A stretch of DNA of 45,865 nucleotides from Reclinomonas americana ATCC 50394 (GCA_048213135.1 PS015036.1:1-45865), one strand, 5' to 3'; positions 15,866 through 45,808 are shown, counted from the stretch's first letter. Made by a program: numbers and translations. The notes: a model not told the origin generated them from the sequence alone.

Positions 15866-18504
15866 CGACGACGAACGTAACGAACGAACGACGACGACGA
15901 CGACGACGACGNNNNNNNNNNNNNNNNNNNNNNNNNNNNNNNNNNNNNNNNNNNNNNNNNNNNNNNNNNNNNNNNNNNNNNNNNNNNNNNNNNNNNNNNN
16001 NNNNNNNNNNNNNNNNNNNNNNNNNNNNNNNNNNNNNNNNNNNNNNNNNNNNNNNNNNNNNNNNNNNNNNNNNNNNNNNNNNNNNNNNNNNNNNNNNNNN
16101 NNNNNNNNNNNNNNNNNNNNNNNNNNNNNNNNNNNNNNNNNNNNNNNNNNNNNNNNNNNNNNNNNNNNNNNNNNNNNNNNNNNNNNNNNNNNNNNNNNNN
16201 NNNNNNNNNNNNNNNNNNNNNNNNNNNNNNNNNNNNNNNNNNNNNNNNNNNNNNNNNNNNNNNNNNNNNNNNNNNNNNNNNNNNNNNNNNNNNNNNNNNN
16301 NNNNNNNNNNNNNNNNNNNNNNNNNNNNNNNNNNNNNNNNNNNNNNNNNNNNNNNNNNNNNNNNNNNNNNNNNNNNNNNNNNNNNNNNNNNNNNNNNNNN
16401 NNNNNNNNNNNNNNNNNNNNNNNNNGAGAGAGAGAGAGAGAAAAGAAAGAAAGAGAAAGAAAGAAAGATGAAAGAGAAGGAAAGAATGAAAGAAAGAAAG
16501 AGAAACTGATGGCGTGGCATGCGCGCAACTCAAAGTAAAACAACTGGCGGCCTCCGCCCGCAATACGACGTAGGGGTGGAATGTACTTGAACGTGCGCAA
16601 TCCACCGTCGGCGCCGTCCGTGAAACTGCGCTCCATAAAGGTCTGCACGCAGCGGAAGTTGCGACTGGAGACACTCAACAGTCAGCACGGGTAGACGGTT
16701 GGGGAGAGGCTACTGCGCTACGCAACGTGTCCCACAGCTTGAAGGTTCCCGACTGTACACAAAACACCAGCAACAGTGAGGAAGTGGATCGCGGTCAGCA
16801 CTCAATTTATCACACAAACCACATCGGCTGTGATGACTTCTGGCGTGTCCGGGATGGAACAGACGCTGACCAGCGGCGCCAAGTGACCCTCCAAGCGGTA
16901 CAGTCGCTTGCAAATCAGCGGGTCCCACTGGCATGACACATAAGTGAGGAAAACGAAGGGAGGGAGTCACATGGGCGAGCGCCAACAAACCACATATGCG
17001 TGATGTTCGTAGCCGGAGCTGAACAGCATGTTGTAGAGATTGTCGTAGCTGAGCGACGCCACGCCCTTGGTGTGATCGCGCAGCACGCCCTTGGTTGTCA
17101 GTGTGCGAATGTCCCACAGACGAATGGCTGCGCGGCGCGCGCGCGTGTGAGTGCGATGAAAGAGAAGCGAACACTGAAAAGACAAACACGCACTGCGATC
17201 GAGGGAAGCCGAAATGACCATGTCGCGTTCGCCGACAGTGAGCATGTCTTGTACGGTGTTGGAGTGGGCGGAGATCTTTTCCGTCGCCCGAATGTCGTAC
17301 GTGGAGATCTGCAAGTGGAGGGTGAGCTGATTGAACCAAGGCGAGGCTGTGTTTCGATCTCACCGTCTTTTTCACGCGCCAAACAGACAGGTCACCGGTG
17401 ATGCTGCCAGAGAAGAGACGCTCTTCGTCTCGCGACCATCTCACGGCCTGTGATATATAAGAGGTGTGAGACTCTGAAAGGAGAAAGGAGGGCTGACTCC
17501 TCATCAACAAACCGTCTGCGGCAGACCCACAGTGGTGGTGGAAACGCTGCGGAAGAGTGAGCCGTCCCACAGCACGAAGCGGCCCTCCGAGTGCGACGAC
17601 ACGACGAGGTTCTCGTGCACAATGTGATCGGCGGCCACGACGGCGCCGCGTGCGTTTGGTCCTCGCAGGTCGCAAATCATTTCGGAAGTCTGGTGGAGGG
17701 GATTTAGGAGAAGGGAATAAAGGAGAAGGGAATTAAGGGGAAGGGAATTGAGGAGAAGGGAATGAAGGAGAAGGGGGAAGACAAGGGAAGAAGGGGAAGA
17801 GCGAAGGGGGAAGAGCGAAGGGGGAAGACCGAAGGGGGAAGACCGAAGGGGGAGGGGGAAGGAAGAGATGAGAGGGAGGAAGACGGAAGGGGGAATGCGA
17901 AGGGGGGTGGAACCAAGGAGGCAGGAAGTGGAGTGTGAAAGCTGACCTGCGCATTGTACAACTTGAAATGCTTCTCCTGATCGGCCACAAACAAAAACGT
18001 CTCCAGGCCCGGGAAGAACCACACACGATCGACGCCTCCCGGATTGTGCCGCGTCTCATCCGTGACATTCGGCGCCGGCTCAAACTCCTCAATATCAGCA
18101 AACTCCTCACTGGAGAACAGCAAGCCGCCCTCAATCAAATACGTGTTGAACTCCTCCCACGAGAGACCGCCGTCCGAGTTGGCGTCGATGCGATGAAACA
18201 AGTCGATGAGACTGTCGACGCGAAACAGTAAGAAACATGCATTGTTGTCAGAGAAGAGACTGCTGCTGGTCGCACCCATCGTGCACATCCTCGCCACTGG
18301 CCTCGAATCGCCCGTGCAATCGCTCGCCCAGCAGGTTGGCAAACTGGCCAAGTGACAGCTCACCGCCGGCCTGAGAATGAAGGAGAAGGTGAGTGACAAA
18401 GGGTAGAGAGGAGGACAAGAAGAGACATACTGAACTGAGCGACTGAGAGACTGAGAAACTGTGACAGAGAGGGGGACTGGGAGACTGAGCGACTGGGAGG
18501 GAGG

Positions 18505-18583
<79 letters not shown>

Positions 18584-19022
18584 GAGACGACGAGACGAGA
18601 CGACGACGACGACGACGACGACGACGAACGAACGAACAACACGACGACGGAACGGAACGGAACGGACGGACGGACGAGGACGAACGAACNNNNNNNNNNN
18701 NNNNNNNNNAGAGAGAGAGAGAGAGAGACAGAGACTGAGAGGACTGAGCGACTGAGAGACTGCGCGACTCAGAGACTGAAACACACTCAGAGACCGGAAG
18801 GGACTGCGAGAGAAGCACAGACACACACTCACAAACCTGTTCCCACTTGCGACGAAACACCAAGAAATCGGTGTCATTCAGCGACTTTACAATGCGCGTC
18901 GGCAGCGCCTCAACTCCGCGTTTCGCCCGCTCAATCTCCGCACGCGATGGAGACGCGCCCGAAGGCGACGACGCGCCAAGCATTTTAAAACGGGCAGTTG
19001 CGCGGGTGTCGCCGGCCTCCAT
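11729..19022 (-). CDS. EF-hand plus multi-WD40 protein (WDR49/CFAP337-WDR64-like, probably ciliary); many exons, two introns contain gaps
   Basis: N-terminal EF-hand LIDLFHRIDANSDGGLSWEEFNTYL followed by WD repeats (LFSGSITGDLSVW, AHSNTVQDML..ISASLDR, DHTKGVASLSYD, TCSDTTILVWD, LVSSSWDGTV, AAGDDEGKIRL, TEGDVRFWNF). Last exon ends ...PARQLFK* at 11729. The start could instead be the ATG at 18983. Confidence 0.7.
15759..15911 (+). repeat. Compound intronic microsatellite (AG)n-(GAAC)n/(GAC)n abutting a gap
   Basis: Directly visible. Confidence 0.9.
17700..17900 (+). repeat. Intronic purine-rich short tandem repeats (ggagaagggaat; gaagggggaagacc)
   Basis: Repeated 14-15 bp units. Confidence 0.75.
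18505..18689 (+). repeat. Compound intronic microsatellite (AG)n-(GAC)n-(GAAC/GGAAC)n abutting a gap
   Basis: Directly visible. Confidence 0.9.
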
Positions 19023-19276: not shown

Positions 19277-21266
19277 ATGCATCGTCGACTGCGGCCACCA
19301 GTTGCGTCCGACACGAGCACCATGCGTGGCCAATGTGCGTGTGACTCACTTGTTGACAAACAGCCTGTGAGGACGACTGGCTCACTGCAATCGCTCTCCT
19401 CGCCGACCTCGTCGTTGGAGTCGAGCTCGTCTTCGACTGCGTATTCGTTTGGGCAACTGGTGGCGGCCATGGACGATCATATGGTGCGCTCGACGTCGTA
19501 TGATCATGAGGCGGTCGATGGGCCGCAGCTGGAGCAGCGGAGGTACACGGCCGAGGTCGATGCGCTGGCCAGTGTACTGTTGCAGCGTGAGAGGTGGAGC
19601 CAGGAGGTGCGTGACTCGAGGAGGAGAGAGAGCGAGAGGCAGAGGGAATATCGCATTCACGTCGTTGTGCGAACAGAGGCAAGAGCGAGAGAGCATTCGC
19701 GTGCGCGATGAGGCGACAGTGTTGCGAGAGCAGCTGGAGGAGGCGAAGCAGGTCGGTGGTGGCGTGTGATTGGTCACTGTGTGTTCGCTTTCCGCCTCAA
19801 TCGGTTGTTTGGGCAGGCGCTGCTGGTGGCGCAGGCGGAGAACCGAGCGCAGCAGGCGACTGTGTCTGGTTTGCGAGCGGTGCTGGAGCAGTCGGCGACG
19901 CAGACGTGGCAGTCGGTGGATCATGTGGCGGTGGTCATGCTGCGGGCGGCGGTGGACAGCGATGCCGATTCGGACGCGGTGGTCGCGTTGAGCGAACCGT
20001 ACGTCGTTGTCGTGCAGATTCTTCCTCTCTTTCTCGTGCTGACAAGGCGTGCGTGCGTTCATAGACTGGTGAGGCAGCTCTTTCCGATCCTGCAGCGAGC
20101 GCAGCGGGATCCGTCGGCGTCGCCCTCCGCGACCACGGTGTATTCGATTGAGCGTGCTATCGAGTCACTGGCGTCGGTGAGTGGGCACTCGCAAGGAGAG
20201 AAAGTAGCATATCGTGTTTTCTGAACGCGTCCACCAGGTGGAGCTGGAGCTGGCCGCACTCGTGCACCGCTCGCTTCCGTCCGGCTCACCGTCACGGTCG
20301 CCCTCGGCTGCGCGCACCCTCGGATCGCCGTACTCACCACTGGTCAAGACCGGAGAGCCGCTTGCAGCGCGACTGCACGCTCACGTGGACCAACTGCGCG
20401 ATCTGGTGCGCCAGTGCCACGCAACCATGCCGCGGCACAGCGTGAGCGCCAACAGCAGTCCCGCCAGCGGAAGCGGCAGTGTGTACAGTTCCCCGTCTGC
20501 CGGCTCACCACCGCGATCGCCGCTGATGACCTCGTCGGTGACGCGGTCGCCACCAGTCAGCCGCGGTCTCGCCGTGCTGCGCGACGAGACACGGGAAAAC
20601 TTTCTGCGTGGTGATCGGAAAATTACCGAGGTGCGGATCATGCAAGTCTCCCTCTCCTTTGTTTTCTTCGCTGACGGTGGTTGATGGGCAGATGGAGACG
20701 GCACTGGCTGACGCCACCTCGGTGCTCTTGTTGCGTCAACGGACTCTGCGCGAGGCAACGGCCTGTGTGGGCGGAGCTGCCGACGATACCAGTGCGCGAC
20801 AGCAAGTGGAGGCACTGCGATGTGAGGATCGCGTGGCGGGAGCGCAGGTTCGTGCATCAACAATGTGTGTACCTCCCATGATTGTTACCAACTCATCCCC
20901 CTCCGTGTGCGTGTTGGCAGATTGTCGCCGAGTTGAACCGCCTCCACCAGCTGACGGTGGAATCGTGGGAGGCCTCGAGAGAGTGCACGAGGTTTTTTGA
21001 TCGGTTAGCACGCGCGCAGCCGGAGACCGCGGAGCTCATGGCGCTGCGGGTGCGTGTGTGTGCATCCAACACCATGGGTCTTCGCCCTCTCAACTCTCTT
21101 CTCTTTCGCGCAGGAGGAGGAGCGACAGCGCGCCGACGAAAGACGGCAGCGCATTGAGCGAAGCCACGAACAGCTCGAGGCACTGCAGCGCTCACAGTCC
21201 GACCTGGACGCCGCATGGGCCGACCTGTCGCTCCGCTGGCGACAATTGCGTGCCACCGTCCTCTGA
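19277..21266 (+). CDS. Hypothetical multi-exon coiled-coil protein with Ser/Pro-rich linkers
   Basis: Helical E/R/L/A-rich exons (LREQLEEAKQ, ALLVAQAENRAQQATVSGLRAVLEQ, EEERQRADERRQRIERSHEQLEALQRSQ) separated by short GT-AG introns; stop at 21264-21266. Confidence 0.6.
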
Positions 21267-21382
21267 GTGAAACATAAAACCAAGCGTGTTTCCAGCATCC
21301 CATTGGGTGTTATTCTGCGCGTCACACAGTTCTCTCTCTCACACATACACAGAGAGGGGCGCAGGCTTGCGCGCGCTCACAC

Positions 21383-22954
21383 TTACAGGTCCTTGAGCAG
21401 GTTCTCTGCGCTCGTGGTCTCGAACGATCCCGGAGGCTCGACGTGGATGGACTGCGGAGAAGAGGGTGAGAATGAAGGGATGAGAATTCAAGCGAGGAGG
21501 GGCACGTGTACCTCGATGCGACCATTGTCGACAATCATCGAGTAGCGCAGCGAGCGAGTGCCGAGGCCGGCCACCGACAGATCGACAGCCAAGCCGAGAG
21601 CGTTGGTGAAGGCGCCCGACGGATCGGCCAGCATGGAGACCTTGCCGACGCACGACATGGACTCACCCCACGCCTTCATGGTAAAGGGGTCGTTCACAGA
21701 GCTGCGGAAAGGGGGAAGGTGAGCGAAGAGAGGAGAAGAGAGGAGAGGAAGGGAAGGGGGAGAAGAAAAAGAAGGAGAAGGGGGAGGAGGAGAAGAAGAA
21801 GAGGACGCAACAGAGGAGGAAGTGGAAGAAGAGGAAGAAGAGGAAGAATGGCAAGGAGAGAGAGAGCGAGGAAGAAGGAGAAGAAAAAAGAGGAGGACGA
21901 GAAGAAGAAGAACAAAGAAGAAGAACAAGAATGAAGGAAAAGAGGAAGAAGACCAAGAACAAGAAGAGAAGAAGAAGAAGAACACGAAGAAGAAGAAGAA
22001 GAAGAACACGAAGAAGAAGAAGTAGAACGAGAAGAAGGAGACGCAGAAGAAGAAGAGAAGAAGAACAAGAAGAGGAGAAGAAGAAGAAGAGGAGAAGGAG
22101 AAGAACACGAAGAAGGAGAAGAAGAATACCAAGAACAAGAAGAGGAGAAGGAGAAGAAGAGGGAGGAGGAGGAGAACAAGAAGAAACAAGAACAAGAAGA
22201 GGAGAAGACGAAGGAGAGCAAGAAGAGAAGAAAGAGAAGAAGAGAGGTGAAACAGCGTGATTGTCACAGGTGTGAATGGAGGGGAATGAATGAATGAATG
22301 CAGACAAGAGAGCGCGGGAGAGAGAAGTGAGAAAAGAGGAGGAGAGAGGCAGTGCGGAACACCACGAACGAGCACTGCATCAGTTGTCTTGCATTGAAAG
22401 AATCGCGATGCAGAAGAGGAAGAGGAAGAGAGGAGAGCCACTGGAAGCAACGCTGATGCTGCTGATGCAGAGGAGCAAGCAGCACGCCCGACAAAAAAGA
22501 AAAGAGAAAGTGAACGCAACATGCAGTACACTTCCTGCACGCCCTTCTTCTTCTTGAGCTCCTCTGCATGGTCGCGGAACGAGGGCACCTGTTGACACAC
22601 ACCAGTGAGCGAGAGAACACACACTCTCTGTGCCTCACACACACACGCAACATGCTTCAATGAGCACACAGGCGTGAACGCGCCAGGCACACCGACCTGA
22701 TGCAGCACACATATTAGTGAGCAAGCACTGATGCAGTGTACGCCTGTGTGTGAGTGTGTGAGAGCATACATGCACACCAGTGCGACTTTGCGATTGCGGA
22801 AGAGCTCCTCAGTGGAGACAGCGGGCGGCTTGGAGCCGGGTGCCAGGAAGAGCTGCACACCCGGAACAATCACGTTGCTGCCCTTGGTCACTTGCTTGGC
22901 AGCAGCGGCGGAGAAGGAGCGGCGAGTGAAGGGGAGAAGAGCGCGGGCAAACAT
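21383..22954 (-). CDS. PRDX5: Type II peroxiredoxin (PRDX5/Ahp1-like) with probable mitochondrial presequence; about 5 exons
   Basis: VGVPGAFTPVCSLKHVP, YCISVNDPFTMKAW, MLADPSGAFTNALGL and GLGTRSLRYSMIVDNG motifs; Arg/Ala/Ser-rich N-terminus MFARALLPFTRRSFS; last exon SIHVEPPGSFETTSAENLLKDL*. Confidence 0.92.
21705..22250 (+). repeat. (GAA)n/(GGA)n-rich low-complexity tract inside an ~820-nt peroxiredoxin intron
   Basis: Almost pure purine tract on the + strand. Confidence 0.9.
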
Positions 22955-23024
22955 GGTTGCGATTGAGAGTGGAAAGTCCTGCACTTTGCGAGACAACACT
23001 ACCCGCTTTTACACAAGGGCTCAC

Positions 23025-24092
23025 TCACTCCACGCTGCGTCGATACGCAACGGCTGCTGCTTCCTCGACAATGAAGCAACGCAACACCAGCTCTGGCAGG
23101 CACCGCGAATCTGCCTCGTCTGCTACTTGCTGCACGGCTAGCATTGCCTGACGCGCTGCCACGAGTTCCTGTTGTGCGAGACCGAGTGGTGTGGACCACA
23201 CTCGTATGGCGTTGTCCTCACCGCCACTGACAATGTGCTGGCCGTCGCGAGAGACGGCAACGCACATTACTCCATCACTGTGCCCCTCCAATCGTTGCAC
23301 TTCGGCGCCGCTTGCAATGGACCACACTCGCACCGTGCTATCCCAGCTCCCACTCACGATCGCGACGTGCTGACCATCGGGAGTGACGGCAACAGAGCGC
23401 ACCCCAGAAGTGTGACCCTCCAACTGCCGCACCTGCTTGCCAGTCGACATGGACCACACTCGTACAGTGTCGTCACTGCTGCCGCTGATAAAGTGCTGAC
23501 CGTCGGGAGTGAAGGCGACCGACCACAAGTAGCCGTAGTGACTCGCCCGTCGCACGCACTTGCCTGTTGCAAGCACCTGCACGTGCACCATGTTGTTCGC
23601 CGTGCCACTCACGATGTGCTGGCCATCGGGGGAGATGGCGACAGAGAGCACACTGTCGACGCGTCCCTCCAGTTGCCGCTCCTGCACGCCGCCACTCGTC
23701 TCCAGTGACCACACTCGCACGGTCTTGTCCCAGCTCCCACTCACAACGTGTCGACCATCGGGAGTCACAGCGACCGACGACACCATGGCAGTGTGACCCT
23801 CCAGTTGCAGCTCCTGCTCTCCACTCGCCAGTGACCACACCCGCACACTCATGTCCTTGCCGCCACTCATAATGTGCTCACCATTGGGGGTGACAGCGAC
23901 AGATGACACCACTCCCGTGTGACCCTCCAGTTGTCGCACTTGTTCTCCACTGGCAAGATGCCACACTCGCACTGTTGCATCGTGACTCCCGCTGATGATG
24001 TGCTCACCGTTGGGAGTGACAGCCACGCACGTCACAGTGTCAGTGTGCCCGACAAGGTGCTGCGAGGCAAGGAAGGGGGGAGGGAGTGACAT
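23025..24092 (-). CDS. Intronless 7-repeat WD40 protein of the same repeat family as the NACHT-WD40 gene, with a short helical C-terminal tail
   Basis: MSLPPPFLASQHLVGHTDTVTCVAVTPNGEHIISGSHDATVRVW...; seven repeats of the GHxxxVxSVAVTPDGxHxxSGSxDxTVRVWS type (two with degenerate GH). ATG at 24092, although extension into the upstream gap cannot be excluded. Confidence 0.85.
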   Translation of the reverse strand: MSLPPPFLASQHLVGHTDTVTCVAVTPNGEHIISGSHDATVRVWHLASGEQVRQLEGHTGVVSSVAVTPNGEHIMSGGKDMSVRVWSLASGEQELQLEGHTAMVSSVAVTPDGRHVVSGSWDKTVRVWSLETSGGVQERQLEGRVDSVLSVAISPDGQHIVSGTANNMVHVQVLATGKCVRRASHYGYLWSVAFTPDGQHFISGSSDDTVRVWSMSTGKQVRQLEGHTSGVRSVAVTPDGQHVAIVSGSWDSTVRVWSIASGAEVQRLEGHSDGVMCVAVSRDGQHIVSGGEDNAIRVWSTPLGLAQQELVAARQAMLAVQQVADEADSRCLPELVLRCFIVEEAAAVAYRRSVE

Positions 24093-24374
24093 GATTGCGG
24101 AAGGAAAGGACGCAGCGGACGAGGAAGGAAGCAGTGTGGGACTTTGATGCTTCGACTTCGTTTGCCAACCACTCTCCCTTTGGCCTCGTCGGAACTTGTA
24201 TGAAGGACTTTGGCGTGCCTTTACATGNNNNNNNNNNNNNNNNNNNNNNNNNNNNNNNNNNNNNNNNNNNNNNNNNNNNNNNNNNNNNNNNNNNNNNNNN
24301 NNNNNNNNNNNNNNNNNNNNNNNNNNNNNNNNNNNNNNNNNNNNNNNNNNNNNNNNNNNNNNNNNNNNNNNNNN

Positions 24375-25380
24375 GCCGCTCCATCTCATGCACGCGACGA
24401 CGCGCCTCCACACGCCGCGCCAGCACCAGCTTCTCGTACTCCACACGCGCCGTCTCCAGCTTCTCGGCCTCCTCACCCTGCTTCTTGCGCACCTCGGCGG
24501 CCAGCACACACTGGCACACGCAGCAGCACGGAGCGAGCACGGTCAACAGCAGATTGGCAAAGAAGCGCGTCGGTTGCTCCCAGCAGCCGCGCAGGCAGAA
24601 CCCGTAGCAGGCCCACTGTTGTGTGGCACAGGAGTGTGAGAACATGGGGAAAAGCAATATGGGAAGGGCATGCATGGTACTCACATCGCGCAGATACGGC
24701 ACTTCAGGGGCCTCGAACGGCGGCAAACCGAGTGCGTCGTTAGGCACACCCTCAATGCTCGCCGACAGATCGGCGTCCATCTCCACCGAGGCCACCGACA
24801 GCATCGATCCGCGTCGTGCAAACGTCGGACTGTACGCCGCATGCTGCAGATACGCGTCGGCCACATGCGACAAGCTCGATCGCCGCGCCCTCCGCAACCC
24901 GCCCGACGGAGACCGCTCGGCCGCCGCCGCGGCCGCTGCGTCCACTCGACGTCGCGACTGCGGCGACATCATGGCGGCATGAGTCGGCGACTGCAAGCGA
25001 TCGCCTCCTTGTATCCGCTGTGGGTCCTCATCGCCCCAGTACGACGCCGACTCGTAGTGTCGTCGACCTCCTTGTTGGCGTCGGTGATGCGGGTGGAGGC
25101 GCGGTTGTGGCGAGTCGGGCAGTGGATGCGGTTGTTGTTGTTGTTGGTGCTGGTGATGGCGATGGGCAGGCGAGGGGTGCTGCTGGTATCGCAGACGCTG
25201 CATGGAGCGTGCGGCGTAGGTGGCCTCCAGGGCGGATGGGGGTGGAGAGGGGGGAGGAGGCGGAGGAGAGGCAGAGTCGACGGCGGCGACTGATGCACCG
25301 GGCAGAGGCTCGCTGACGGGTGGGGCGCTGCCACCGCCACCGTCCATCACCAGGCTGCGTGGACGGTGTTGGCGAAGCAT
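24375..25380 (-). CDS. Hypothetical protein with Pro/Gln-rich N-terminus and a Cys-rich hydrophobic segment (loosely PLAC8-like); 3' end lost in a gap
   Basis: ORF from ATG 25380; GTGAGT...CAG intron near 24683-24615; segment WACYGFCLRGCW..LLLTVLAPCCCVCQCVLAAEVRKK followed by a coiled coil. Confidence 0.5.
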
Positions 25381-25565: not shown

Positions 25566-28500
25566 CTACACTCCCAAAGCCCCGGTAAAGTCAGGCGAGA
25601 CAGCGCCCAGAATGCGCTCGACAAGCCCGCGAGTGTGACGCCGCATCAGATGGATCGATTTGCCGGACACGCGAGCGGTGTAACCAGCGCCAAACGCGAT
25701 GCGACCAAAGGAAACCACACGATCGATTTCTGGGTCCACCAGATCTGCCTGGTCGTCGAGAGACACTTCTTCACCACTCGCTAGTGTCCATACTCGTAAA
25801 GCGCCATCATTACTCCCACTAACAATGTGCTGGCCATTGGGGGTAACTGCTACAGATTCCACAACACTGAAGCCAGTGTGTCCCTCAAAACGTCGCACTT
25901 CTTCACCATTTGCCACAGACCACATTCGTACTGTCTTGTCCGCGCTCCCACTAATCACATACTGACCATCGGGAGTGACGGCAACACAAAAAACCAGATT
26001 TGTGTGGTCCAGCAATCGCCGCACTTCCTTTCCACTCGCCAATGACCACAGTCGCACAGTCTTGTCTGCACTCCCACTCACAACGTGCTGACCACTGGGA
26101 GTGACGGCAACAGAGAACACTGGCAATGCGTGTCCCGTCAATCGTTGCAACTCTTCTCCACTCGCGAGTGACCACACTCGCACTGTCTTATCGTAGCTGC
26201 CGCTCACAACGTGCTGGCTATCGGGAGTGACAACTACCGACCACACCCACCGAGTGTGTCCCTGCAGCAGTCGAACTGCTTTCCCAGTTGCTAACGACCA
26301 CACGCGCACAGTTCTATCAGCACTTCCACTTACAATGTGCTGCCCATCAGGAGTGACAGCAACAGACCGCACCATGCCAGTGTGTCCTTCCAATCGGCGC
26401 ATCTGCTTTGCACTCATCACAGACCACAGGCGCACCGTATTGTCACGACTTCCGCTCACAATGTGACGACCATTTGGAGAGAATGCAAAGGTACTACCCT
26501 CCAGGCTCCACAGCTCTTCGCCGTTAGCCACAGACCACACTCGCACCGTTCCGTCTACGCCTGCACTCACCACGTGTTGGCAGCTGAGAGAGAGAGCAAC
26601 GGATTGCACTAAACCACTGTGGCCCTCCAACCGTCGCACTTCTTCCTCCCCAACAATCGACCACACTCGCGCTGTGTCGTCACCGCTGCCACTGACAATG
26701 TGCTGGCTGTCAGGCGTGACGGTGACGCAGAATACCTCACCATTGTGTCCCTCCAATCGTCGCAACTCTTTCCAACTGTCCAGTGACCAGACTCGGACTG
26801 TCTTGTCCACGCTACCACTTACTATGTGCTGACCGTCGGGAGTAACGGTGACAGAGGTCACCACATCAGTGTGTCCCTCCAATCGTCGCACTTCATCTCC
26901 ACTCGCCAGAGACCATACGCGTACTGTCTGGTCATCACTCCCACTAACTATGTGCTGACCGTTGGGAGTGACGATGACAGAATGCACTGCATCACTGTGT
27001 CCCTCCAGCCGTCGTACTTCCTCGCCTCTTGTCAGTGACCACACTCGAATCGTCATATCCCAGCTCCCACTCACAATGAACTGACAATCGGGAGACACGC
27101 CTACAGAGTTTACCCTCTCTGTGTGACCCTCCAATATTTTCAATAATTCCCCACTAGATAGTGACCACACTCGCACCGTCATATCCTCACCACCGCTCAC
27201 AATGTGCAATCCATCAGGAGAGACCGCGACACATCGTACAGCATCAACGTGCCCCACTAACTGCTTCACTTCCTCCCCAGTCGTCAGTGACCATATGCGC
27301 ACTGTCCCGTCACCACTCCCGCTTACAATGCACTGGCCATCGGGAGTGATTGCAATGGAGCGCACCCAGAGAGCGTGCCCCACTAACCGCCGCACTTCTT
27401 CTCCACTAGCTGCAGACCACACGCGTACTGTCTTGTCGTTTCCCCCACTCACAGTGTGCTGACCATCGGGAGTGACAGCAACAGACGCAACTCCCCAAGT
27501 ATGTCCCACCATCGGCTTCCTCGGCCACTTCACACCCGTCACATCCGCCCCTCTTAAATCCGCCTCTCTTGCATACGCCATGCGCACATTCACCCCTCGC
27601 AAATCCGCTCCCCTCCACACCGTCCGGTGCATCACCGCATCCCTCAAATCCGCACCCCTCACTCGCACACCCGACAGATCGCGCCCACTGAACGACACTT
27701 GTGCCACACACAACACTGTCGCCGCATTTGCCGCTGCCGTCACTAATCGTTCCTCATCCACCTCTCTTGACAACTCAATCAACTCCCACAATCTCGCTTG
27801 CAATTGCCGAGATCGTCGCACCACCTCGGCCATCTGCTCCACCAACGATGGTCGATCATTCAGTAGTCGCACTGCCAGCACATGCTGTTGCACATCCTGC
27901 ACCGTCAACCTCCTCTCCTCATTCCACGTCTCCCACGCAAACACATGCCGTGCCACACAGTGCTCCAACAACGACAGATGCACGAATCCCCACTGATCCG
28001 TCCCATACCGTCGAACAATCGGACAGCACACTCGCACATGCTGGAATTTGTCGCCAAGGAACTTGTCAAACGGCCCGTCCTCTCGTCGAAAGCCGACTGG
28101 CGCGCCACCGAACTCATCAATGTCTTCTTCGAATGCTCGCTCCTCTGACACAGCACGCACCACATTCCTCTCGTGCATCAACCGCGCCAGTCCCTCACAG
28201 AATGAGAGGCACGTCTTCTCTTTCGGTACGCGCTCTGCATCAAGACGCGTCTGCCTCTCCTGTTCCCTCAAAATCCACTGCCGAATGAATCGGTCAAACA
28301 CATCGCACCGAGTCGGTCGCTGCACTTCGCTTGCCACCAACTGCGGCAACACACGAGCCACCACAGCCAGCAGGAACGGATTCGACACCAGTACATCCAG
28401 TCCATGCACACTCTTCAATGCACGAATGTACTCCGCGGCAGTCGACCATCGCACTTCACAGTCGTCATCGTCACCCTCCACATCCACCAGCCGCTCAAAG

Positions 28501-30377
28501 TACTCCTTAATTTGTCTCTTGCTGAATGGTACAATATATCGCTCTATCAGCTTCTCCATGCACAACTGTCCTCTTGCATCCACCGGTGCAAAGTACCGTC
28601 GATACTGCGCCGCTCCACCCAGTGTCGTCAGTGCGTAATCGCCTCGACAGGTGATTATTACCTTCACATTGCGACACACATCCAGCTGGTTCTTGACAAA
28701 CAGATTCACACCACGATACAACTCATCGTATCCGTCAAGCAACAACAACAGTGGTTCCTCCTTCAACCGTCGCACATCCGCCTCATTGAATCCCAACTCA
28801 GGTGAGAGTCGCTCCAGTGCCTCCTCCAACAGCCGCTCATCGGCATTGCGTAGTGCACCAAGAGGCACACGCACAGGCACTCGTCTGCTCTCTCCCGTCT
28901 GCCACTGTCGCCATGCTCGCTCGGCCAGCACCGACATGGTGGTGGTCTTGCCGGCTCCACTGTTGCCCAAGAGCACCAGCACACGGTGCGTGGTGTTGGA
29001 GTCGGAGAGGAAGGCATCCACCTCCGTCAATAGATCCGTCATCTTGTCCCTCGATGAGACGTCACGCTCAAGTGAGCACCGCAACGGCACATACATCCGC
29101 ATGTCCTTGCGCACACTCTCATCGTGTTGATAGAAGTACAGCGCGCGCACAGCTAATCGATGCAGTCGTTCTTCGAAGGTACTAATGCTAAAGTCGAAGT
29201 GGCGCGCTTGGCGGATTCGTGTTGCATAACAGTCAATCACATCGGCTGGAAGATGCAGCTTGCCAAGGAGGGAGAGGAGTACACCACCGCCATCACTCAG
29301 GTATTGATGCACAGTGATCTCCGTCAGCACGAGGTCCTTGTGAGCCAATGCCTTTCTCACATCATTCAGCTCTTCCACAGCCTTCCGTTCATCAGCATCG
29401 TCAATCAGCAGCAGTTTGCGACTGTCACTCAGAACGAAGCCACCATACAGCATGATGGTGGTTAATGCCGTCGTGTCAAAACCGTCACACGGAGGGTCTG
29501 AAGACGGGTCGGTGTCGAAGGCAGCACGCCAGGCCAACGTAACTGATTGCTTCTCTTTGAAGATTCGCACCTGCCCGGGATGGAGTGGAGCATGTCGGTC
29601 ACGCCATGCCTTCGCGGCCACCGCATGCATGTGCATGCCAGTCGGCATAACGCTGGGCACCCACTTCCACAAATCGCCAGAGTTGATCCGTGGAGACCAC
29701 AGGTCCACTGCCCACGCCCGTGCATCAAAGTCGGGATGATCGCGACTGAACTGCGCCAGCACTCGAACACAGCGCAGACGCACAGCTTCCTCCACCACCT
29801 CGAAGGCCATGTTGATGCGATTGAAATTGACCATGCTGAGTGCACACAGCGCAGTCAGCATAGACTCACACCGAGTGAAGAACGAGAAGAAGAGAGAGAG
29901 AGGATGGCAGTGGCAAGCAAGACAAACCGAGTCACTCGCTCCAAGTTGCTGTGCCGAGACATGAGAGTGAGCTGCATGTTGTGCACAGAGGATGCTTCAC
30001 AAGCACATCCACGTACACACCTTCCACTCTCACTCCCGCTCGGCGGCAGCGCCACGCCAAGTGTCACACGGACGACGAGATGAGTGGATGAGTTGACGCC
30101 GAGTGATTTTAACTTCATCACATTCGCATCCTCCAAATCGAACGGCAACGGCTTCTCCACCCCCACAATCTCCAACTCCCCATCTCCACTCTTCTCACGC
30201 AGCAAGCGAGTGGCCTCGCGCAGCAAGTCCGCCAGAGTGGACATGCCCGCCATGCCCTCCACCACCACCGACAGCGACGAATCATGCGCCGCACTCACAT
30301 GCACAGAGAACTGTGTGTAAGCACAATGGTCAGTGAGCGCACACAGAAAGGAGGGAAAGAGAGAGCCTGCTCACCAT
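25566..30377 (-). CDS. NLR-like STAND protein: Ubl-like header, HEPN-like domain, NACHT, pentapeptide repeats, 14 WD40 repeats (about 1527 aa; exons 30377-30375, 30310-30021, 29948-29928, 29835-25566)
   Basis: Walker A GNSGAGKT (28944-28967), Walker B LLLLLDGYDE, sensor VIITCR, SNPFLL and FVHLSLLEH motifs. Pentapeptide stretch FSGRDLSGVRVRGADLRDA...GADVTGV. Fourteen WD40 repeats at about 25770-27510. Three phase-consistent GT-AG introns (64, 72, 92 nt) attach the 5' exons. Confidence 0.9.
25770..27510 (-). repeat. Coding tandem repeat, about 126-bp unit x14 (WD40 blades) with high internal similarity
   Basis: Recurring + strand motifs gaccacactcgcactgtc, ccactcacaatgtgctg and ccatcgggagtgac at about 126-bp spacing. 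Confidence 0.9.
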
Positions 30378-31458
30378 TTTTTTGTGGATCTGTCGACTTG
30401 TCAGCTGCAGATTCGGACAATTGCAAGACAACTTCGAATTCATGATCATGTCAGCATGACAGCTGTTGGTTACTGCAACAACAATAACTTTACTAATCCA
30501 AACAGCAACACAGCTGCATGATGATCACCATCTTGCGCGAGCACCAGAAACTCAGACCGCTGGACAACCGTATTATTTCCGATAAATCNNNNNNNNNNNN
30601 NNNNNNNNNNNNNNNNNNNNNNNNNNNNNNNNNNNNNNNNNNNNNNNNNNNNNNNNNNNNNNNNNNNNNNNNNNNNNNNNNNNNNNNNNNNNNNNNNNNN
30701 NNNNNNNNNNNNNNNNNNNNNNNNNNNNNNNNNNNNNNNNNNNNNNNNNNNNNNNNNNNNNNNNNNNNNNNNNNNNNNNNNNNNNNNNNNNNNNNNNNNN
30801 NNNNNNNNNNNNNNNNNNNNNNNNNNNNNNNNNNNNNNNNNNNNNNNNNNNNNNNNNNNNNNNNNNNNNNNNNNNNNNNNNNNNNNNNNNGAACAGTCCC
30901 TTGGCCGCGTCCAGCCATCGGCCTATCATATTTGATGCATCAAGACAGCTGCTATGGCTCTTCACGATTGTGAGGTCGCCTCCGCATCGGCGGATATCAT
31001 CTTCCCGCAATTCGAAACGTGTGTGCCTCACCCACCTTTCGCGTCAATATTGGCCCGCCTTTCATACCCTTCATCCGCACCCATAGAAACGCGCGACGGC
31101 CGAGATACATGTGCACTTCAAGTCGCATCTGACGGTGGCAAGCAGCCACGCGAACGCGCTGCTTGAATGCGGTTAGATTAACGTCGAAATCGAACACATA
31201 TATCCAGTAATTATTATACCCTCCTGCTCACGACAGGCCCTTACCCCGGAACTGCAGTGCCTCTCTCCACGCAACAGCGCCTGCTGTCTCAGTTGTCCAC
31301 CAGCACCTGCAAAGAATGATTTTTTTCACCACTTGCCTATTCGAGTTACCGGACGAAACCGATGTCTGTGCTCTGTTTCGAACCAACTTACTTTTTGCAT
31401 CGAGTGGAGAAGAGGTGGCCAGCACACACACACCAGAGCACTGTCCTATCCAAAGAAG

Positions 31459-35101: not shown

Positions 35102-36399
35102 TTCAGTTTCGGATTTGGCGCGAGCTCGAGTGGAGCTGTAAATGACGTGCATGGAAGTTCTCCTTCCTGATCATTCTTTGTGCGCTTTGTGTCACTTCCC
35201 GCACCACCCTTGTCGACGCTGGCCATCCTCCACCCATGCCTGCCGCGCTCAGTTGTCCTCGCACACCGCAGCAAGTCAACAACGAACTTCTCGTCCTCGC
35301 GTCCCATTTGCCCTTGACCCTTTCGTTACCCCTTTCCAACAATGTCCACTGAGGAGAGCAGAATAGGAGAGAAGGAGGCCGAAGAAGGCGCAGGNNNNNN
35401 NNNNNNNNNNNNNNNNNNNNNNNNNNNNNNNNNNNNNNNNNNNNNNNNNNNNNNNNNNNNNNNNNNNNNNNNNNNNNNNNNNNNNNNNNNNNNNNNNNNN
35501 NNNNNNNNNNNNNNNNNNNNNNNNNNNNNNNNNNNNNNNNNNNNNNNNNNNNNNNNNNNNNNNNNNNNNNNNNNNNNNNNNNNNNNNNNNNNNNNNNNNN
35601 NNNNNNNNNNNNNNNNNNNNNNNNNNNNNNNNNNNNNNNNNNNNNNNNNNNNNNNNNNNNNNNNNNNNNNNNNNNNNNNNNNNNNNNNNNNNNNNNNNNN
35701 NNNNNNNNNNNNNNNNNNNNNNNNNNNNNNNNNNNNNNNNNNNNNNNNNNNNNNNNNNNNNNNNNNNNNNNNNNNNNNNNNNNNNNNNNNNNNNNNNNNN
35801 NNNNNNNNNNNNNNNNNNNNNNNNNNNNNNNNNNNNNNNNNNNNNNNNNNNNNNNNNNNNNNNNNNNNNNNNNNNNNNNNNNNNNNNNNNNNNNNNNNNN
35901 NNNNNNNNNNNNNNNNNNNNNNNNNNNNNNNNNNNNNNNNNNNNNNNNNNNNNNNNNNNNNNNNNNNNNNNNNNNNNNNNNNNNNNNNNNNNNNNNNNNN
36001 NNNNNNNNNNNNNNNNNNNNNNNNNNNNNNNNNNNNNNNNNNNNNNNNNNNNNNNNNNNNNNNNNNNNNNNNNNNNNNNNNNNNNNNNNNNNNNNNNNNN
36101 NNNNNNNNNNNNNNNNNNNNNNNNNNNNNNNNNNNNNNNNNNNNNNNNNNNNNNNNNNNNNNNNNNNNNNNNNNNNNNNNNNNNNNNNNNNNNNNNNNNN
36201 NNNNNNNNNNNNNNNNNNNNNNNNNNNNNNNNNNNNNNNNNNNNNNNNNNNNNNNNNNNNNNNNNNNNNNNNNNNNNNNNNNNNNNNNNNNNNNNNNNNN
36301 NNNNNNNNNNNNNNNNNNNNNNNNNNNNNNNNNNNNNNNNNNNNNNNNNNNNNNNNNNNNNNNNNNNNNNNNNGTCGTTTCTCTCTCATTCTGTCCCGC

Positions 36400-36407
36400 T
36401 CACCTCT

Positions 36408-36456
<49 letters not shown>

Positions 36457-37012
36457 CCTTCTCTTCATCGCCTTGTCGTTCTCACTCTGTCCTCGCTTCC
36501 TCTCACTCTCTGTCTTGCTCGCTCTCTTTTTCGTTTTCCCATTACTTGCTATTCTTTCACTCTGCTGCCTTCGTTTTCTCTGTTTCCGTCGCCTTGTCGT
36601 TCTCGTTCTGCCCTCACTTCCTCTCTCGCTTAAACTGTCTTGCGCACTCGCCCTCTCATATCCCGATCTCTCGGCTCCTGCGCCCCGACTTGTCATTCTC
36701 TCCCTCGCCCGCCCGCTTATCCCTTGTGCTCTCTCGTATCACCTCACTCATTCTGTCACCCGTTCACCGTTGCTTCTCACTCTCCCTCTATTATCTCTTG
36801 CGCGCTTCCCCTTGTTTCCCATTCATTTTCGCTTGCCGTCTGATTCCCCTCTGTCGCCTTGTCCACCTCTCACCCTCTCTCATCTCTCTCTCTTTCTCCA
36901 TCTCTCGCCTCTCCTCTCTCTCACACACGCGCGCTTTTCCTCTCCCCTCGTCCCCCTCCCTCTCTGTCGCCCTTTCCCCTCTCCTTCCCCTCACCCCTCC
37001 CTTCCCCTCCCT
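36400..37012 (+). repeat. CT-rich low-complexity intronic tract with (CT)n
   Basis: Pyrimidine-rich stretch ending at a CTGCAG acceptor. Confidence 0.85.
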
Positions 37013-39681: not shown

Positions 39682-41852
39682 ATGGCAGTTGCCGCACATC
39701 GTCATCGCTATCACCACTCGGCCTCGGGTGACCACATGCCACTCTTTCACCACCATGCGCCCGCCATGATGATCTCTCCTCCGTTGGCGTTTTACACTGC
39801 CACCACAACCATTGCGTCATCATCATCATCGACGACATCATCAGCGGCGGTGTCTCGCAAGGCGCACCACCCGTCGCCACCGCGCAAGCTCAAGAAGCCG
39901 GCCATCGCGACAGGATTTGGCGTGTCGTGTTTGTGTCGTCGGAGAGGTTGCTCGACGGCGGATTTGACCATCAACTGTGACGAGGAGCGCGAGGATCCGG
40001 TGGAGGACTTCTACTTGCCCGAGTCGCCCTCGTCTGCGTCGGATCTGGTGTTGTGGTCGTCGTCGTCGGCCTCGGAGGTCTCGTCGCCGTCTGCGTCGCC
40101 GACACCGCGACAGCTGCTGAGTGTGTCGTTTGGCGAGGAGCTCACAGAGGAGGAGGAGCGGCAGTGTCGTGAGCTGCTGCGACAAGTCATGCAGGCGCGA
40201 CGACAGGTGCGTGCGTGCGTGTGGCTTGTGTGTGAGGTTGTGTTTGGCGCAAGTCGTCCTTATTTGGACTTGGATCACACAGAACTTTGTGCCATCGGTG
40301 GGCTTCCTGCCAATGCCCGAGACGATCGTGCCTCCGGCATGTGTCGCTCGCACGCCGACCGCCTGCGTGTGCGGTGGTGATTGCGCATTGCCACAGGCGC
40401 GCGTCACGATTGACATGACGACGGGAGTGTATCACAGTGCGCGTTCGGATGTGCGTGTGGCGGTGGTGCCCGACGTGCATCCGGGCATCGTTCATCGCCT
40501 GCCCGCCGATGCGCCGTGCGTGCCGGTGCCGCTGGCGGTGTCGGCCGACGGAAAGCGCATTGCGGTGGCCGGCGCAGCGGGTGGCGGCGCCAAGGACATT
40601 GTGAGCTCGGCGTCGCTGGACGAGTTGTCGCTGCCGCGGCACACGGTGGTGGCCGGTGCGGCCGCCGATGCGTTGACGTTTGTGGCCGACTCGCATGCGG
40701 TGCTGGCCGTGTCGACCGACGCTGCGCTGACGGTGCTGAGTGCGGACTCGGGCGAGCGCGAGCTGCTGCACAATGAGCTGCCGATGGTCAACTTGCCGCT
40801 GTGCTGCGTGGCCGTGTCGCCCGACTACCGGCAGACGGTGCTCGGCGACGCCAGTGGCATGCTGACTGTGTTCCAGGAGGCGGCCAGCGACGACAAGAGC
40901 AGCGACACGTTTGCGCAGCAGGTGCACACGCGCTCACGATCGCGGGTGTGCGCCGTGGCCTTTTCGCCCGACGCCCGCGATCTGGCGTGCACGAATCGCG
41001 ACGGCACCGTCAGCGTGTGGTTCGGCTTCAACCCCATGTCGCCGGCGGACTTTGCCGACTCAGTGGTCAGCGGTCCGCCGCCATCGCGAGTGCTGTCGAG
41101 GCCGCAGGGTGGTCGGCCCGACATTGGCTTTGCGCCGCTGGCGTGGAGCCCGGTCGGCAAGCGGCTGCTGGTCGGCGAGTACAGCCGCTCGTCGCCGTGC
41201 TCGCTCCTCATGTGGCACCTGGACCAGCCGGGCACCTTGCCGGTGGTCAGCGTGGCGCAACCAGGCACCGTCACCAGCGTTGGCTGGATGCTCGACAACG
41301 CCTCGCTGTGCGTCAGCTGCTCCTCCGACATGACGCTCAGCACGTGGTGCGCCGCCGACCTCACCCGACTCCAGACCGTGCACCTGCGATCGGCACCACC
41401 GCGCATGTTGGCACTGCCGACGCGGAACAGATTTGCTCCGGCACTGGCCACCTTGCCGGCGCACTCGAACAGCCTGGTGGTCTCTGCCGGCGGCTCCCTC
41501 ATCAGCGTGTTGAATAGTGCGTTCAACACCCCTCCTCTCTCTTCTTTCTTCTCCTCCTTCCGTCTTCTCACTTGCCTGCTGTGCAGTTGTCGGCGTCGAC
41601 GTCGAGGTCGGTGACTGCCGGCGCGCCGTGGAGGCCGTCCGCGCATTGCTTCCACTGGACGACGACGACACGCAGATGGATGCCGAGAGCAGCGATGACA
41701 CCGACGACAGCCGTCGCATGTGGGCCGACAGCGATCCACGGCTATCGCTCGTCCTCATTGTCATGAACGCCTTCATGCTGGAGGAGGCCCGACTGCACGC
41801 ACTGCGATTCCGCTACCACAAGATGGCCGCGGCGCAGCTGTCGCCGTCATAG
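39682..41852 (+). CDS. Divergent WD40/beta-propeller protein with low-complexity N-terminus
   Basis: LAVSADGKRIAVAG, CVAVSPDYRQTVLGDASGMLTVF, AVAFSPDARDLACTNRDGTVSVW, LAWSPVGKRLLVG and VTSVGW..SSDMTLSTW; GT-AG introns near 40207-40282 and 41517-41586. Start uncertain. Confidence 0.7.
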
Positions 41853-44038: not shown

Positions 44039-45808
44039 TCATTCATCGTCGGCGTCCATGGCTGTGGCCTGCTGGTGCACGCCACTGCCGCTGCCGCCGC
44101 CGTCCTCGTCCTCACCCTCGCCGTCGTCGTCGTCGTGGAGACCGAGTGTGTGCGGTTCCACCAAGTAGGGCGTCTCGTCGAGGCGCCTCATGCTGGCAAT
44201 CGAGTCGTCGACCCACGCGCGGTACACGAACTTGGGTCGAGAGCGCACGCACAACTGGCGCAGCGATGGCAGGCGCCACGTGTCTAGCGAATCGCACACA
44301 ACGTGCGTGATGATGGTGCTCGGGTTCGTCTCGATGGTGGCACCGTGCGCCGACAGCGCAATTTCCGTCTCGTTCAGCCAGCTGTCCTCGATGCGAGTCG
44401 ACGGGTCGCTGCAGGAGAGACCGGTGAGTCGGGAACGCACGTAGTGCAAGAGAGGCACGAGCGAATAACGCAACCCGAGTTCGACAAAGGCGTCGACGTA
44501 GAAGATGAGGGGCGAAAAGATGCTGGTCTCGGGCATGCAACCGGTCTCCTCGTACTGCTCCATCTGCCACCAGTCGCGGCCGGCCGGCTGATGATGCAAA
44601 CAAGATTCACAACAAAGGACATGGTGTATGAGGTCGAAGGGCAGACACGCAACATCGTCGGGCGGTCGCGGATAGTCGACCATGCGGGCGAACACGGCGC
44701 GCAGTTCATCCGTACTGACTGGCTCCATGTACGAGTCGCCGTACTTGTCGGAGAGCACCTTGAAGGCCTCGCTGGTCTTCGGCGACGTGTAGATCATCCA
44801 CCTGCAAGCCACGATTGAGTGAGAAGAAGAAGACAGTCGCCGCTTCCCTTCACGACTCAACTTTTCCGAGAGCGGTATCCGCTGGCGTCGATTGAGACAC
44901 TCGGCGAACCAGTCCAGCTTGACAATGTCCACAGGGCGAAAGACGCCAGTCTCAAAGCCACGAATCACGTCCTTGACTCGCACGTCTGTTGAAGGGAAGG
45001 GAGATGAGCGACAAGCGAACAATAAGCAAAACAGTGTTGACAAAACTATTGGAGCTGGCAAGCATAATGTTGGTGGTCGGCGTGCACTCCTGCGTCTTGC
45101 GGCCACCGTACTTGACGATCAGTTCCTCTACTCGTGCCTTGCCCGTGCGTCCATCGGTCGACTCCAGCGGGCCCTTTGTGTAGTTGATCTTGGAGTCGAC
45201 ATAGAGAACGACTGGAGGGACACAGCAGTGTGTGAGATCCAGCGTTTCATCCCACTCTTCTCCTTCCAACGCACCAAACTCGTCGCCACGGAAGACGTTG
45301 CCCTGCACCTCCACACGCGACGTGTCCGTGTCGCGAAACTGCGGTGCAATCATCAGCGCCTGACGGGTGCGCGGCGCCACGTTCCGACGCTTGCTGGCCG
45401 TCTCGTCGGGCAGGTACTCGCCCGTCCTCTTGGCGTTCGTGCCGAGCAGGCCGTTCTGTGACTCGGAATCGTGCACAAGCACCATGTACTCTGCGTGTTG
45501 AAGCAATGAGCAGTTGTGGTGGTGGTACCAAAAACACACACACACTCTCACACCATCCAGCGTCAGCGAGTCACGCCAGTCCTTGTCGTGACGCACTCGC
45601 ATCATGCGCGGAAAGCGCAAGGTGTAGCCAGTGCGGAACTTGTCGGTGGTGATGATGGAGTAGCCGCGCACTTGCAGCACGATGGATCTGTGTATGCAGG
45701 CAACCAAAAGAGTGAGCACGAGGACCGTCCCTGTGTGCCTACCACGACGACGAAACTTGTCGGCTGGGATCCACACCGACGGCACATCGTTCGCGGCCGG
45801 CCGCCAGC
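44039..45808 (-). CDS. LIG4: DNA ligase IV, C-terminal part (end of OB fold, two BRCT domains, XRCC4-interacting linker); continues past the window edge
   Basis: VPSVWI..SIVLQVRG..GYTLRFPRMMRVRHDKDWRD; BRCT1 VEELIVKYGG..DIVKLDWFAECL; linker DKYGDSY; BRCT2 ITHVVCD..VYRAWVDDSI. Confidence 0.92.

Follow-up and report, generated by a model that had tools for sequence, protein, structure and literature searches.

The 45,865-nucleotide (nt) stretch of Reclinomonas americana ATCC 50394 DNA analysed here over its whole length (GCA_048213135.1 PS015036.1:1-45865; hereafter the window) carries on its minus strand a single unbroken open reading frame (ORF) at positions 25566-29861 that encodes a large receptor-like protein. 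This gene is real, intact and NLR-like, and comparison with its relatives makes its assignment to the NACHT-pentapeptide-WD40 type of STAND/NLR proteins well supported. In the reading that we favour, the product is a single large STAND (NLR-like) receptor of this family that is probably headed by a HEPN domain and would be activated by proximity; taken jointly, we consider the chances of this combination to be about even. An immune role, a ligand and an RNase action of the receptor are proposed here by analogy with known systems.

The ORF opens at 29861, closes with a stop codon at 25566-25568 and comprises 1431 codons, corresponding to as many amino acids (aa). Within the first 790 residues, Pfam assigned a NACHT domain to aa 293-408 (PF05729, 39.8 bits, cut-off 26.7) and matched Pentapeptide at 30.5 bits (cut-off 20.2); WD40 was matched in exactly 14 stretches (E 6e-149). 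The protein can accordingly be divided into a nucleotide-binding oligomerization domain (NOD) module with the NACHT domain (aa 269-708, 27738-29057), which holds the Pfam match and invariant columns of the family alignment described below, a spacer between NOD and propellers that consists of an AAANAATVL motif and about 11 pentapeptide repeats (aa 709-783, 27513-27737), 14 WD40 repeats that are expected to form two seven-bladed propellers (aa 784-1366, 25764-27512), and a C-terminal tail that received no family assignment (aa 1367-1431, 25566-25763 including the stop codon). These features, like all further parts of the gene, lie on the minus strand. The NOD module displays the Walker A motif GNSGAGKT (aa 299-306, with K305; 28944-28967) and the Walker B motif LLLLDGYDE (aa 372-380; 28722-28748), both read directly from the sequence, along with a TCR sensor motif, NPF and an F-x-H motif (GFVHLS, aa 625-630), the histidine of which we take to be placed in the winged helix. 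A preliminary description of this DNA had proposed a STAND/NLR-type NACHT-WD40 receptor with intact Walker motifs, a pentapeptide stretch and 14 WD40 repeats, and our analysis bears this out: both Walker motifs fall in invariant family columns, Pfam recovers the pentapeptide stretch as well as the 14 repeats, which have a 42-aa period, and the Pfam domains, the family alignment and the relatives (10 by single sequence, 90 by profile) agree on the type of receptor.

The family alignment (A1) covers the region from NACHT to the pentapeptide repeats in seven rows, the receptor and six relatives. Its invariant columns are G31, G34, K37, D108, D111, E112, C137, R138, P227, F358 and H360, and its rows have in common Walker A/B, TCR, NPF, F-x-H-K-S and an AAANAxTxL motif leading into pentapeptide repeats, a spacer kept in 7/7 rows. 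As A1 and the profile search show, this short spacer, a beta-helix, is a standard part of the NACHT-WD40 family and no oddity; NCBIfam pentapeptide families match it below their cut-offs. A single-sequence search with aa 250-720 retrieved 10 proteins, all of NACHT-pentapeptide-WD40 type, one of them from Hexamita inflata; the best was P0006 (1.1e-42, 32% identity), and P0007 matched the NOD module at 2.1e-29 with 99% coverage. The A1 profile found 90 proteins at E<=1e-5 (8000 candidates scored), which according to their source names are mostly from Mortierellomycotina fungi, with three from the endobacteria Mycoavidus and Glomeribacter and others from Sorangium, Undibacterium (with a PF01048 phosphorylase in the Pfam annotation), EukProt 'tig' models and metagenome records. 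A scan of prokaryotic genomes gave 157 relatives among 551 pattern matches, the best 80 of the 157 including Mycoavidus, Coxiellaceae, Myxococcales, Bacteroidota and others, and a metagenome scan gave 126 relatives among 598 matches, with a best identity of 27-28% among the strongest matches. The receptor protein itself had no entry in either of the two protein collections searched. In a FastTree phylogeny of 66 full-length NOD modules, from which partial profile matches such as P0006 were left out, the receptor is placed on a long branch as sister to the metagenome protein P0007, whose source name is WD40 repeat protein/serine-threonine kinase.

Over its whole length, the receptor NOD module is 27-33% identical to those of the family and displays the same motifs (GxxGxGK[ST], LLLLDGYDE, TCR, NPF, FxHKS), followed by the same AAANAxTxL-plus-pentapeptide spacer and then WD40 propellers; the linker in front of NACHT is also common to receptor and relatives. 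The heads differ: among the matches listed, where a name or a Pfam list shows one, the family carries Arm-like helical, kinase, TIR, SAM or PNP/UDP-phosphorylase domains, and the receptor head is unlike these. Part of this head repertoire has been described before (Wojciechowski et al. 2022, PMC9815663). As judged from these matches, the core from NACHT to the pentapeptide repeats is part of a large existing family with interchangeable heads.

As a separate observation on this family, NACHT-pentapeptide-WD40 copies (P0016-P0078; L001-L045) are common to Mortierellomycotina and to metagenome-assembled genomes labelled Mycoavidus cysteinexigens, many of them on short contigs. Some of these 'bacterial' Mycoavidus copies may be fungal contigs that were binned with the endosymbiont, or else real transfers, as suggested in PMC9815663.

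The N-terminal part of the receptor is only partly shared with these relatives. In a tblastn search of aa 1-290 against 80 bacterial loci, only aa ~197-289 matched (top match L001, E 7e-4), and blastp against the N-termini of the family was restricted to aa 207-287. Since only aa ~197-289 of the N-terminus are common to relatives, the variable head can be set at aa ~10-196. We distinguish a head of about aa 10-200 (29262-29834), a sequence orphan that is predicted to be all-helical and, from ESM Atlas, Pfam and profile comparisons, HEPN-like (Swt1 type), and a helical pre-NACHT linker with a Y-V-P motif that is shared with the family (aa 201-268, 29058-29261). For the head, no homologue was found in a word-indexed protein search with aa 1-290, no match among PDB sequences and none when metagenome and genome contigs were scanned with this one protein as query. 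In a phmmer search against 1.84 billion representatives, two proteins alone were matched, P0004 and P0005, which we judge to be spurious because they are long repetitive proteins matched in many weak stretches (5 and 8, respectively).

Within this orphan head, we consider R169-K-A-L-A-H174 (29340-29357) to be a candidate HEPN catalytic motif of the Rx4H form, as it aligns with the R..AH of both the Pfam family HEPN_Swt1 and a cyanobacterial profile. In the ESM Atlas, the nearest named clusters for the head were HEPN_Swt1 (0.81) and HEPN_DZIP3 (0.78), and its ten best family-bearing matches all fell in one clan; scores below 0.9 are leads only, and 0.8 is attained by 1/3 of shuffled proteins. 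A comparison of four sub-stretches of the head with 24,736 Pfam models gave HEPN_Swt1 as the sole family at E<=10 (E 0.048-0.14), with aa 157-180 aligned to positions 74-96 of the 115 in the profile, which is the Rx4H region. Swt1-HEPN domains were matched in 31/251 cyanobacterial genomes, and a profile of our own built from 30 such domains scored 11.3 bits on aa 1-240. Among 2000 composition-preserving shuffles none scored as high (maximum 6.5), and the same held for 2000 shuffles in which R169 and H174 were kept fixed (maximum 5.7). Run against 101 whole family proteins, this profile ranked the receptor first at 8.2 bits, with the runner-up at 3.3. In a low-confidence AlphaFold2 (AF2) model with a predicted local distance difference test score (pLDDT) of 35.5, a helix predicted at aa 155-173 ends at the motif, and a helix end is also the location reported for the HEPN motif (PMC3710099).

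Twelve of the 30 cyanobacterial loci used for the profile (L083-L088, L090, L095-L097, L107, L108) carry the Swt1-HEPN at the very start of frames of 1031-1304 aa, and the remaining ones lie in frames of about 200-520 aa. The long frames fit the HEPN-AAA+ (Ava_2192-type) proteins of PMC3710099.

Several results weigh against a HEPN head. The bare motif is uninformative, as Rx4-6H occurs five times in aa 1-290 where 2.8 are expected, which is chance level, and the residue following R169 is K where N is usual. Pfam gave no HEPN match over the entire 790-aa stretch, the sub-stretch scores of 12.9-14.4 bits stay below the HEPN_Swt1 cut-off of 27.5, and the match spans just ~25 residues around the motif. 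With aa 1-156 alone, our profile scored -0.8 bits, a value equalled by 206/2000 shuffles, and hhalign yielded P 0.024 and a probability of 2%, with 4/200 shuffles as high. The AF2 model, made without an alignment, consists of helices only and offers no usable fold. Neither a similar head nor a Swt1-type HEPN was detected in the 100 other family proteins, 80 genome loci and 80 metagenome loci, and the databases searched held no homologue of the head that could show conservation of R169 and H174.

These points would suit a receptor of the same type whose head is an unrelated lineage-specific helical domain, for instance an adaptor, a membrane-attacking bundle or a regulatory cap, with a likeness to Swt1 that arose by convergence or chance, all the more so as heads are highly interchangeable in the family and, among fungal NLRs, many heads lack an annotation (PMC9815663). 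We regard such a head as rather unlikely. Two unrelated methods, ESM Atlas and Pfam, point to the same superfamily, no rival Pfam family appears at E<=10, no shuffle equals the profile score, whether or not R and H are kept in place, and 0/100 other family proteins rise above 3.3 bits. It is thus the sequence context of R169 and H174, and not the bare motif, that exceeds chance. The head weakly resembles HEPN at the level of the motif, better than by chance and at the position of an effector, the fold being unproven; most likely, as far as profile and language-model comparisons go, it is a Swt1-type HEPN that has diverged strongly, in which R169 and H174 would form the catalytic pair, and we hold the chance that it is a HEPN domain at all to be somewhat better than even. 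The helical, HEPN-like RxxxxH domain of the preliminary description therefore keeps its R169/H174 pair and gains sub-threshold support from Swt1 as the only family found in the domain-wise profile check; what falls away is the weight of the motif as such, and a score under the cut-off and a pLDDT of 35.5 are what remains for the fold.

Upstream of the ORF, we predict further exons. Putative exon 1 would consist of the start codon only (30375-30377), with A at -3, G at +4 and a GTGAGC donor directly after it. It would be followed by putative intron 1 (30311-30374, 64 nt, GTGAGC...CTCACTGAC...CACAG), by exon 2 (30021-30310, 96 codons + 2 nt), which encodes a candidate ubiquitin-like (beta-grasp) header and then a P/S/G-rich linker, by putative intron 2 (29949-30020, 72 nt, GTGTGT...GCTCAC...CACAG), by a putative 21-nt micro-exon 3 (29928-29948), which is optional in that skipping it preserves the frame, and by putative intron 3 (29836-29927, 92 nt, GTTTGT...CTGAC...CACTCAG, acceptor AG at 29837-29836). 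The last of these introns overlaps the first 9 codons of the mechanically called ORF, so that putative exon 4 would begin at 29835, one base ahead of the ATG of M10, and the product with all exons is predicted at 1527 aa. All predicted introns are GT..AG, 64-92 nt long and frame-preserving. A branch-like CT[CG]AC motif, chosen after inspection of these introns, lies within -45..-8 of the acceptor in 3/3 of them, compared with 91/841 CAG sites in the background of this strand.

With a codon log-odds table trained on the main ORF, exon 2 scored 0.269 per codon when read in the frame that joins the ORF; its two remaining frames gave -0.65 and -0.33, and windows of the same length in the main ORF had an in-frame mean of 0.30 (minimum 0.16) and reached at most -0.09 off frame. 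Because its joining-frame score lies within the in-frame range of the main ORF, exon 2 is very likely coding. Its ESM Atlas recognition was 2817; the top matches were unnamed clusters at 0.90, and every named neighbour was ubiquitin-like (0.88-0.89). A single-sequence AF2 model (pLDDT 48.1) gave the element order beta-beta-alpha-...-beta. The header is countered by the absence of any Pfam match for exon 2, by a PDB sequence search that returned a single non-meaningful match (4xfd_A, NAD+ synthetase, E 1.5), and by Foldseek, which found 0 matches at E<=0.001 with the model. The top Foldseek matches, ribosomal protein S6 permutants and GyrA, are meaningless for a model of this pLDDT, and a Crinkler-type ubiquitin-like header was set aside, as exon 2 is without a Pfam match and nothing relevant was among the papers listed in the literature search. 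Through splicing, the upstream exon would probably place a small ubiquitin-like domain, followed by a flexible linker, before the head. For the 5' exons and the ubiquitin-like header that had been suggested before, this leaves frame-consistent GT..AG boundaries and coding-type codons together with a joining that stays putative, and, on the side of the header, a language-model lead and a low-confidence element order that neither Pfam nor Foldseek backs.

Alternatively, the protein may start at M10 (29832-29834) or at the first ATG of the ORF (29859-29861), the upstream exon being a separate gene, a separate transcript or a relic, and the receptor would then lack a header. M10 stands in good context, with A at -3 and G at +4, which speaks against the longer product. 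Colinear similarity to the HEPN profile, weak as it is, opens at aa 11, and the cyanobacterial domain likewise starts at the first residues of its protein. Moreover, the exon-2 frame stays open without splicing to 29855 with weakly positive codon scores (0.13-0.17), and the prediction of a first exon of one codon is fragile, as is that of a 21-nt micro-exon. Against this stand the coding-like character of exon 2 solely in the frame that joins the main ORF via GT..AG, its ending in a P/S/G linker with no stop ahead of the donor, the motif present at all three acceptors, and its position only 186 nt from M10, a spacing too short for exon 2 to be an independent eukaryotic gene. We therefore think a start within the ORF improbable, though by no means negligible, and retain the predicted spliced product. 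The window contains ten N runs of 20-997 bases each, and one of them, at 30589-30890, lies ~210 nt upstream of the putative start codon; because of this assembly gap the promoter and any further 5' exon are hidden, and the true 5' end of the gene may be incomplete.

The WD40 repeats follow a register of 42 aa, with repeat ends from aa 816 to aa 1359. The 11 regular ones have a mean pairwise identity of 0.59 at the aa and 0.65 at the nt level. Their most variable positions are 16 and 18, around the conserved V17, and 34 and 36, around the conserved D35, so that the variable x-V-x and x-D-x pairs are 18 residues apart. In the repeats of fungal HET-D/E, codons 7/9 and 25/27, around the conserved positions 8 and 26, are positively selected (PMC1805685). 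The variable repeat positions of the receptor are thus the positions under diversifying selection in HET-D/E, with within-gene variability alone being measured here.

Directly downstream, 186 nt past the receptor stop, lies a second gene-like stretch on the minus strand (23025-25380). Its upstream portion, P0002 (24375-25380), is a P/Q/H-rich, Cys-rich N-terminal part without a Pfam match and is followed by an assembly gap (24228-24374); P0003 (23025-24227) encodes seven WD40 repeats that are about 50-57% identical to those of the receptor. This stretch could serve as a donor of repeats or as a partner, or it could be a second STAND gene of which the gap conceals the middle. That the receptor itself might be a housekeeping or scaffold STAND protein (TEP1/NWD1-like), with no role in non-self recognition or cell death, is very improbable. 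In its favour, NACHT-WD40 proteins with non-immune roles do exist, and the Kibby et al. preprint (10.1101/2022.07.19.500537) assigns TEP1 to a separate clade of NACHT proteins. Against it, the highly alike repeats that vary mainly at the positions under selection in HET-D/E, the head that is swapped among relatives, the lack of an ortholog in the databases searched (best NOD identity 32%) and the sister repeats in the neighbouring gene argue for a fast-evolving conflict gene and not a conserved scaffold.

For 18 further proteins of the window, namely P0002 and the products of 17 neighbouring ORFs, Pfam returned weak or partial matches only, and Rfam and tRNA scans of the window gave no match. 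The ORF at 40121-41614 on the plus strand matched WD40 at 24.4 bits (cut-off 27) and a THOC3-type propeller at 2.6e-11, below the cut-off; since it is 25.7% identical to the repeats of the receptor, we consider it an unrelated propeller gene. Fragmentary domain matches were seen in the long minus-strand ORFs at 21488-22999, 44039-45106 and 17704-18642, among them Redoxin over the last ~65 residues only (51.7 bits), one EF-hand below the cut-off and a DNA ligase IV motif (22.8 bits, cut-off 22.1); these suggest genes with several exons that are left unresolved in the ORF list. Strong strand skews at 21001-23000 (AT skew 0.42-0.49) and 36001-37000 (GC skew -0.62, AT skew -0.72) indicate low-complexity or repeat sequence beside assembly gaps. 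Together, the candidate introns, the assembly gaps and the neighbouring ORFs of low complexity are in keeping with a eukaryotic genome, which is the most likely source.

Among known systems, the animal HEPN-NACHT receptors have the same logic and order of domains, with an N-terminal HEPN of the Rx4H form, a central NACHT and C-terminal repeats, as proposed here for the receptor (PMC9646362, PMC3710099). In animals, HEPN domains of the DZIP3 and CXorf38 kinds occur as fusions with NACHT, and expansions are listed for Nematostella, oyster and Capsaspora (Anantharaman et al. 2013, PMC3710099). Pearl oyster encodes >50 NACHT proteins with an N-terminal DZIP3-like HEPN, and the NACHT proteins of this species can bear LRR, TPR or WD40 repeats (PMC9646362). 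The animal proteins form lineage-specific expansions in conflict-type genes, and HEPN_DZIP3 is the second nearest language-model cluster of the receptor head. The differences are that the head has no match to PF18738 (the DZIP3/hRUL138-like HEPN) in Pfam at E<=10, its sole sub-threshold family being Swt1, that the receptor NACHT falls in the pentapeptide-WD40 family, outside the animal clades, that the N typical after the arginine (PMC9646362) is replaced by K, and that the receptor apparently comes from a non-animal host.

In bacteria, HEPN-STAND-TPR proteins are on record (PMC3710099), and bacterial NACHT proteins include HEPN among their N-terminal enzymatic effectors and beta-propellers and pentapeptide repeats among their sensors (Kibby et al. 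preprint). With the effector at the extreme N-terminus, a NACHT switch and superstructure-forming repeats as sensor, they resemble the receptor. These bacterial proteins are prokaryotic and some were shown to be anti-phage, whereas the receptor gene has candidate spliceosomal introns and possibly a ubiquitin-like header.

The fungal allorecognition receptors HET-E/HET-D (HNWD, PMC1805685) share with the receptor a NACHT followed by many internally alike 42-aa WD40 repeats, and their pairs of variable codons, 7/9 and 25/27, have the same distance of 18 residues as positions 16/18 and 34/36 of the receptor; the sister repeats in the second gene nearby are a further HNWD-like trait. HET-E/HNWD, however, carry an N-terminal HET domain, for which the receptor has no Pfam match at E<=10, the pentapeptide spacer sets the receptor apart from them, and identity among HNWD repeats reaches up to 100%, compared with the mean of 0.59 reported above. 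RNase L and Ire1, which are HEPN RNases of the KEN type, dimerise upon ligand binding and provide a model for proximity activation of the receptor head. They use other sensors (ankyrin/2-5A and a lumenal domain), have no STAND ATPase and belong to a different HEPN family, so that the likeness is one of mechanism only.

Because it has been reported in animals, bivalves and bacteria, the HEPN-NACHT-repeat type of architecture is already catalogued. The preliminary description, which had offered the combination as unfamiliar and potentially novel, claimed too much in this respect, given that N-terminal HEPN domains on NACHT proteins with LRR, TPR or WD40 repeats are published (PMC9646362, PMC3710099). 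The co-occurrence of HEPN with a ubiquitin-like domain is likewise on record, for a KEN protein and for sacsin (PMC3710099, Table 1). What appears to be new within the material searched is the Swt1-like orphan head on this NACHT family (0/100 family proteins, 0/160 loci), and the possible ubiquitin-like header and the host lineage also appear new. No description of a ubiquitin-like-HEPN-NACHT protein was found in the literature searched, in which supplementary architecture tables are not covered, and the accessible text of Wojciechowski et al. (PMC9815663) does not mention HEPN (0 occurrences).

We propose the following mode of action for the receptor, reasoning from the families to which its parts are related. 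The propellers would bind a non-self or altered-self ligand, upon which the NACHT module would exchange nucleotide and oligomerise, and oligomerisation would gather the N-terminal heads together. HEPN RNases act as dimers with a composite active site, and for this reason induced proximity would switch on RNA cleavage once the HEPN heads dimerise. The outcome may be growth arrest, cell death or the destruction of viral RNA. The ubiquitin-like header could serve as a cap, a docking module or a stabiliser. In its fullest form, this amounts to an NLR of a unicellular eukaryote with an unrecognised orphan branch of HEPN RNases, a ubiquitin-like cap and a diversifying 14-blade WD40 sensor that together make up an RNA-destroying suicide or antiviral switch, a picture that we put forward tentatively and consider quite unlikely to hold in all its parts. 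If true, it would represent an abortive-infection-type switch in a single-celled eukaryote, and the ubiquitin-like cap would be a new regulatory layer, acting in autoinhibition or targeting, that is undescribed for any NLR-HEPN protein.

The receptor opens no new category, as both the type of architecture and the proposed mechanism are already in the literature. The orphan head illustrates where annotation from sequence falls short when effector domains evolve fast. With K305, R169 and H174 as candidate residues in one gene, the receptor is a compact test case for an RNase activated through STAND ATPase-induced proximity. The pairing of NLR and HEPN is known from bacteria, bivalves and cnidarians, and if the head is an active HEPN RNase, the combination of an NLR switch with a HEPN warhead would extend to a further eukaryotic lineage. 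HEPN would then also join the kinase, TIR, SAM and phosphorylase heads that are otherwise seen in this NACHT family, which would point to free swapping of effectors on one sensor chassis.

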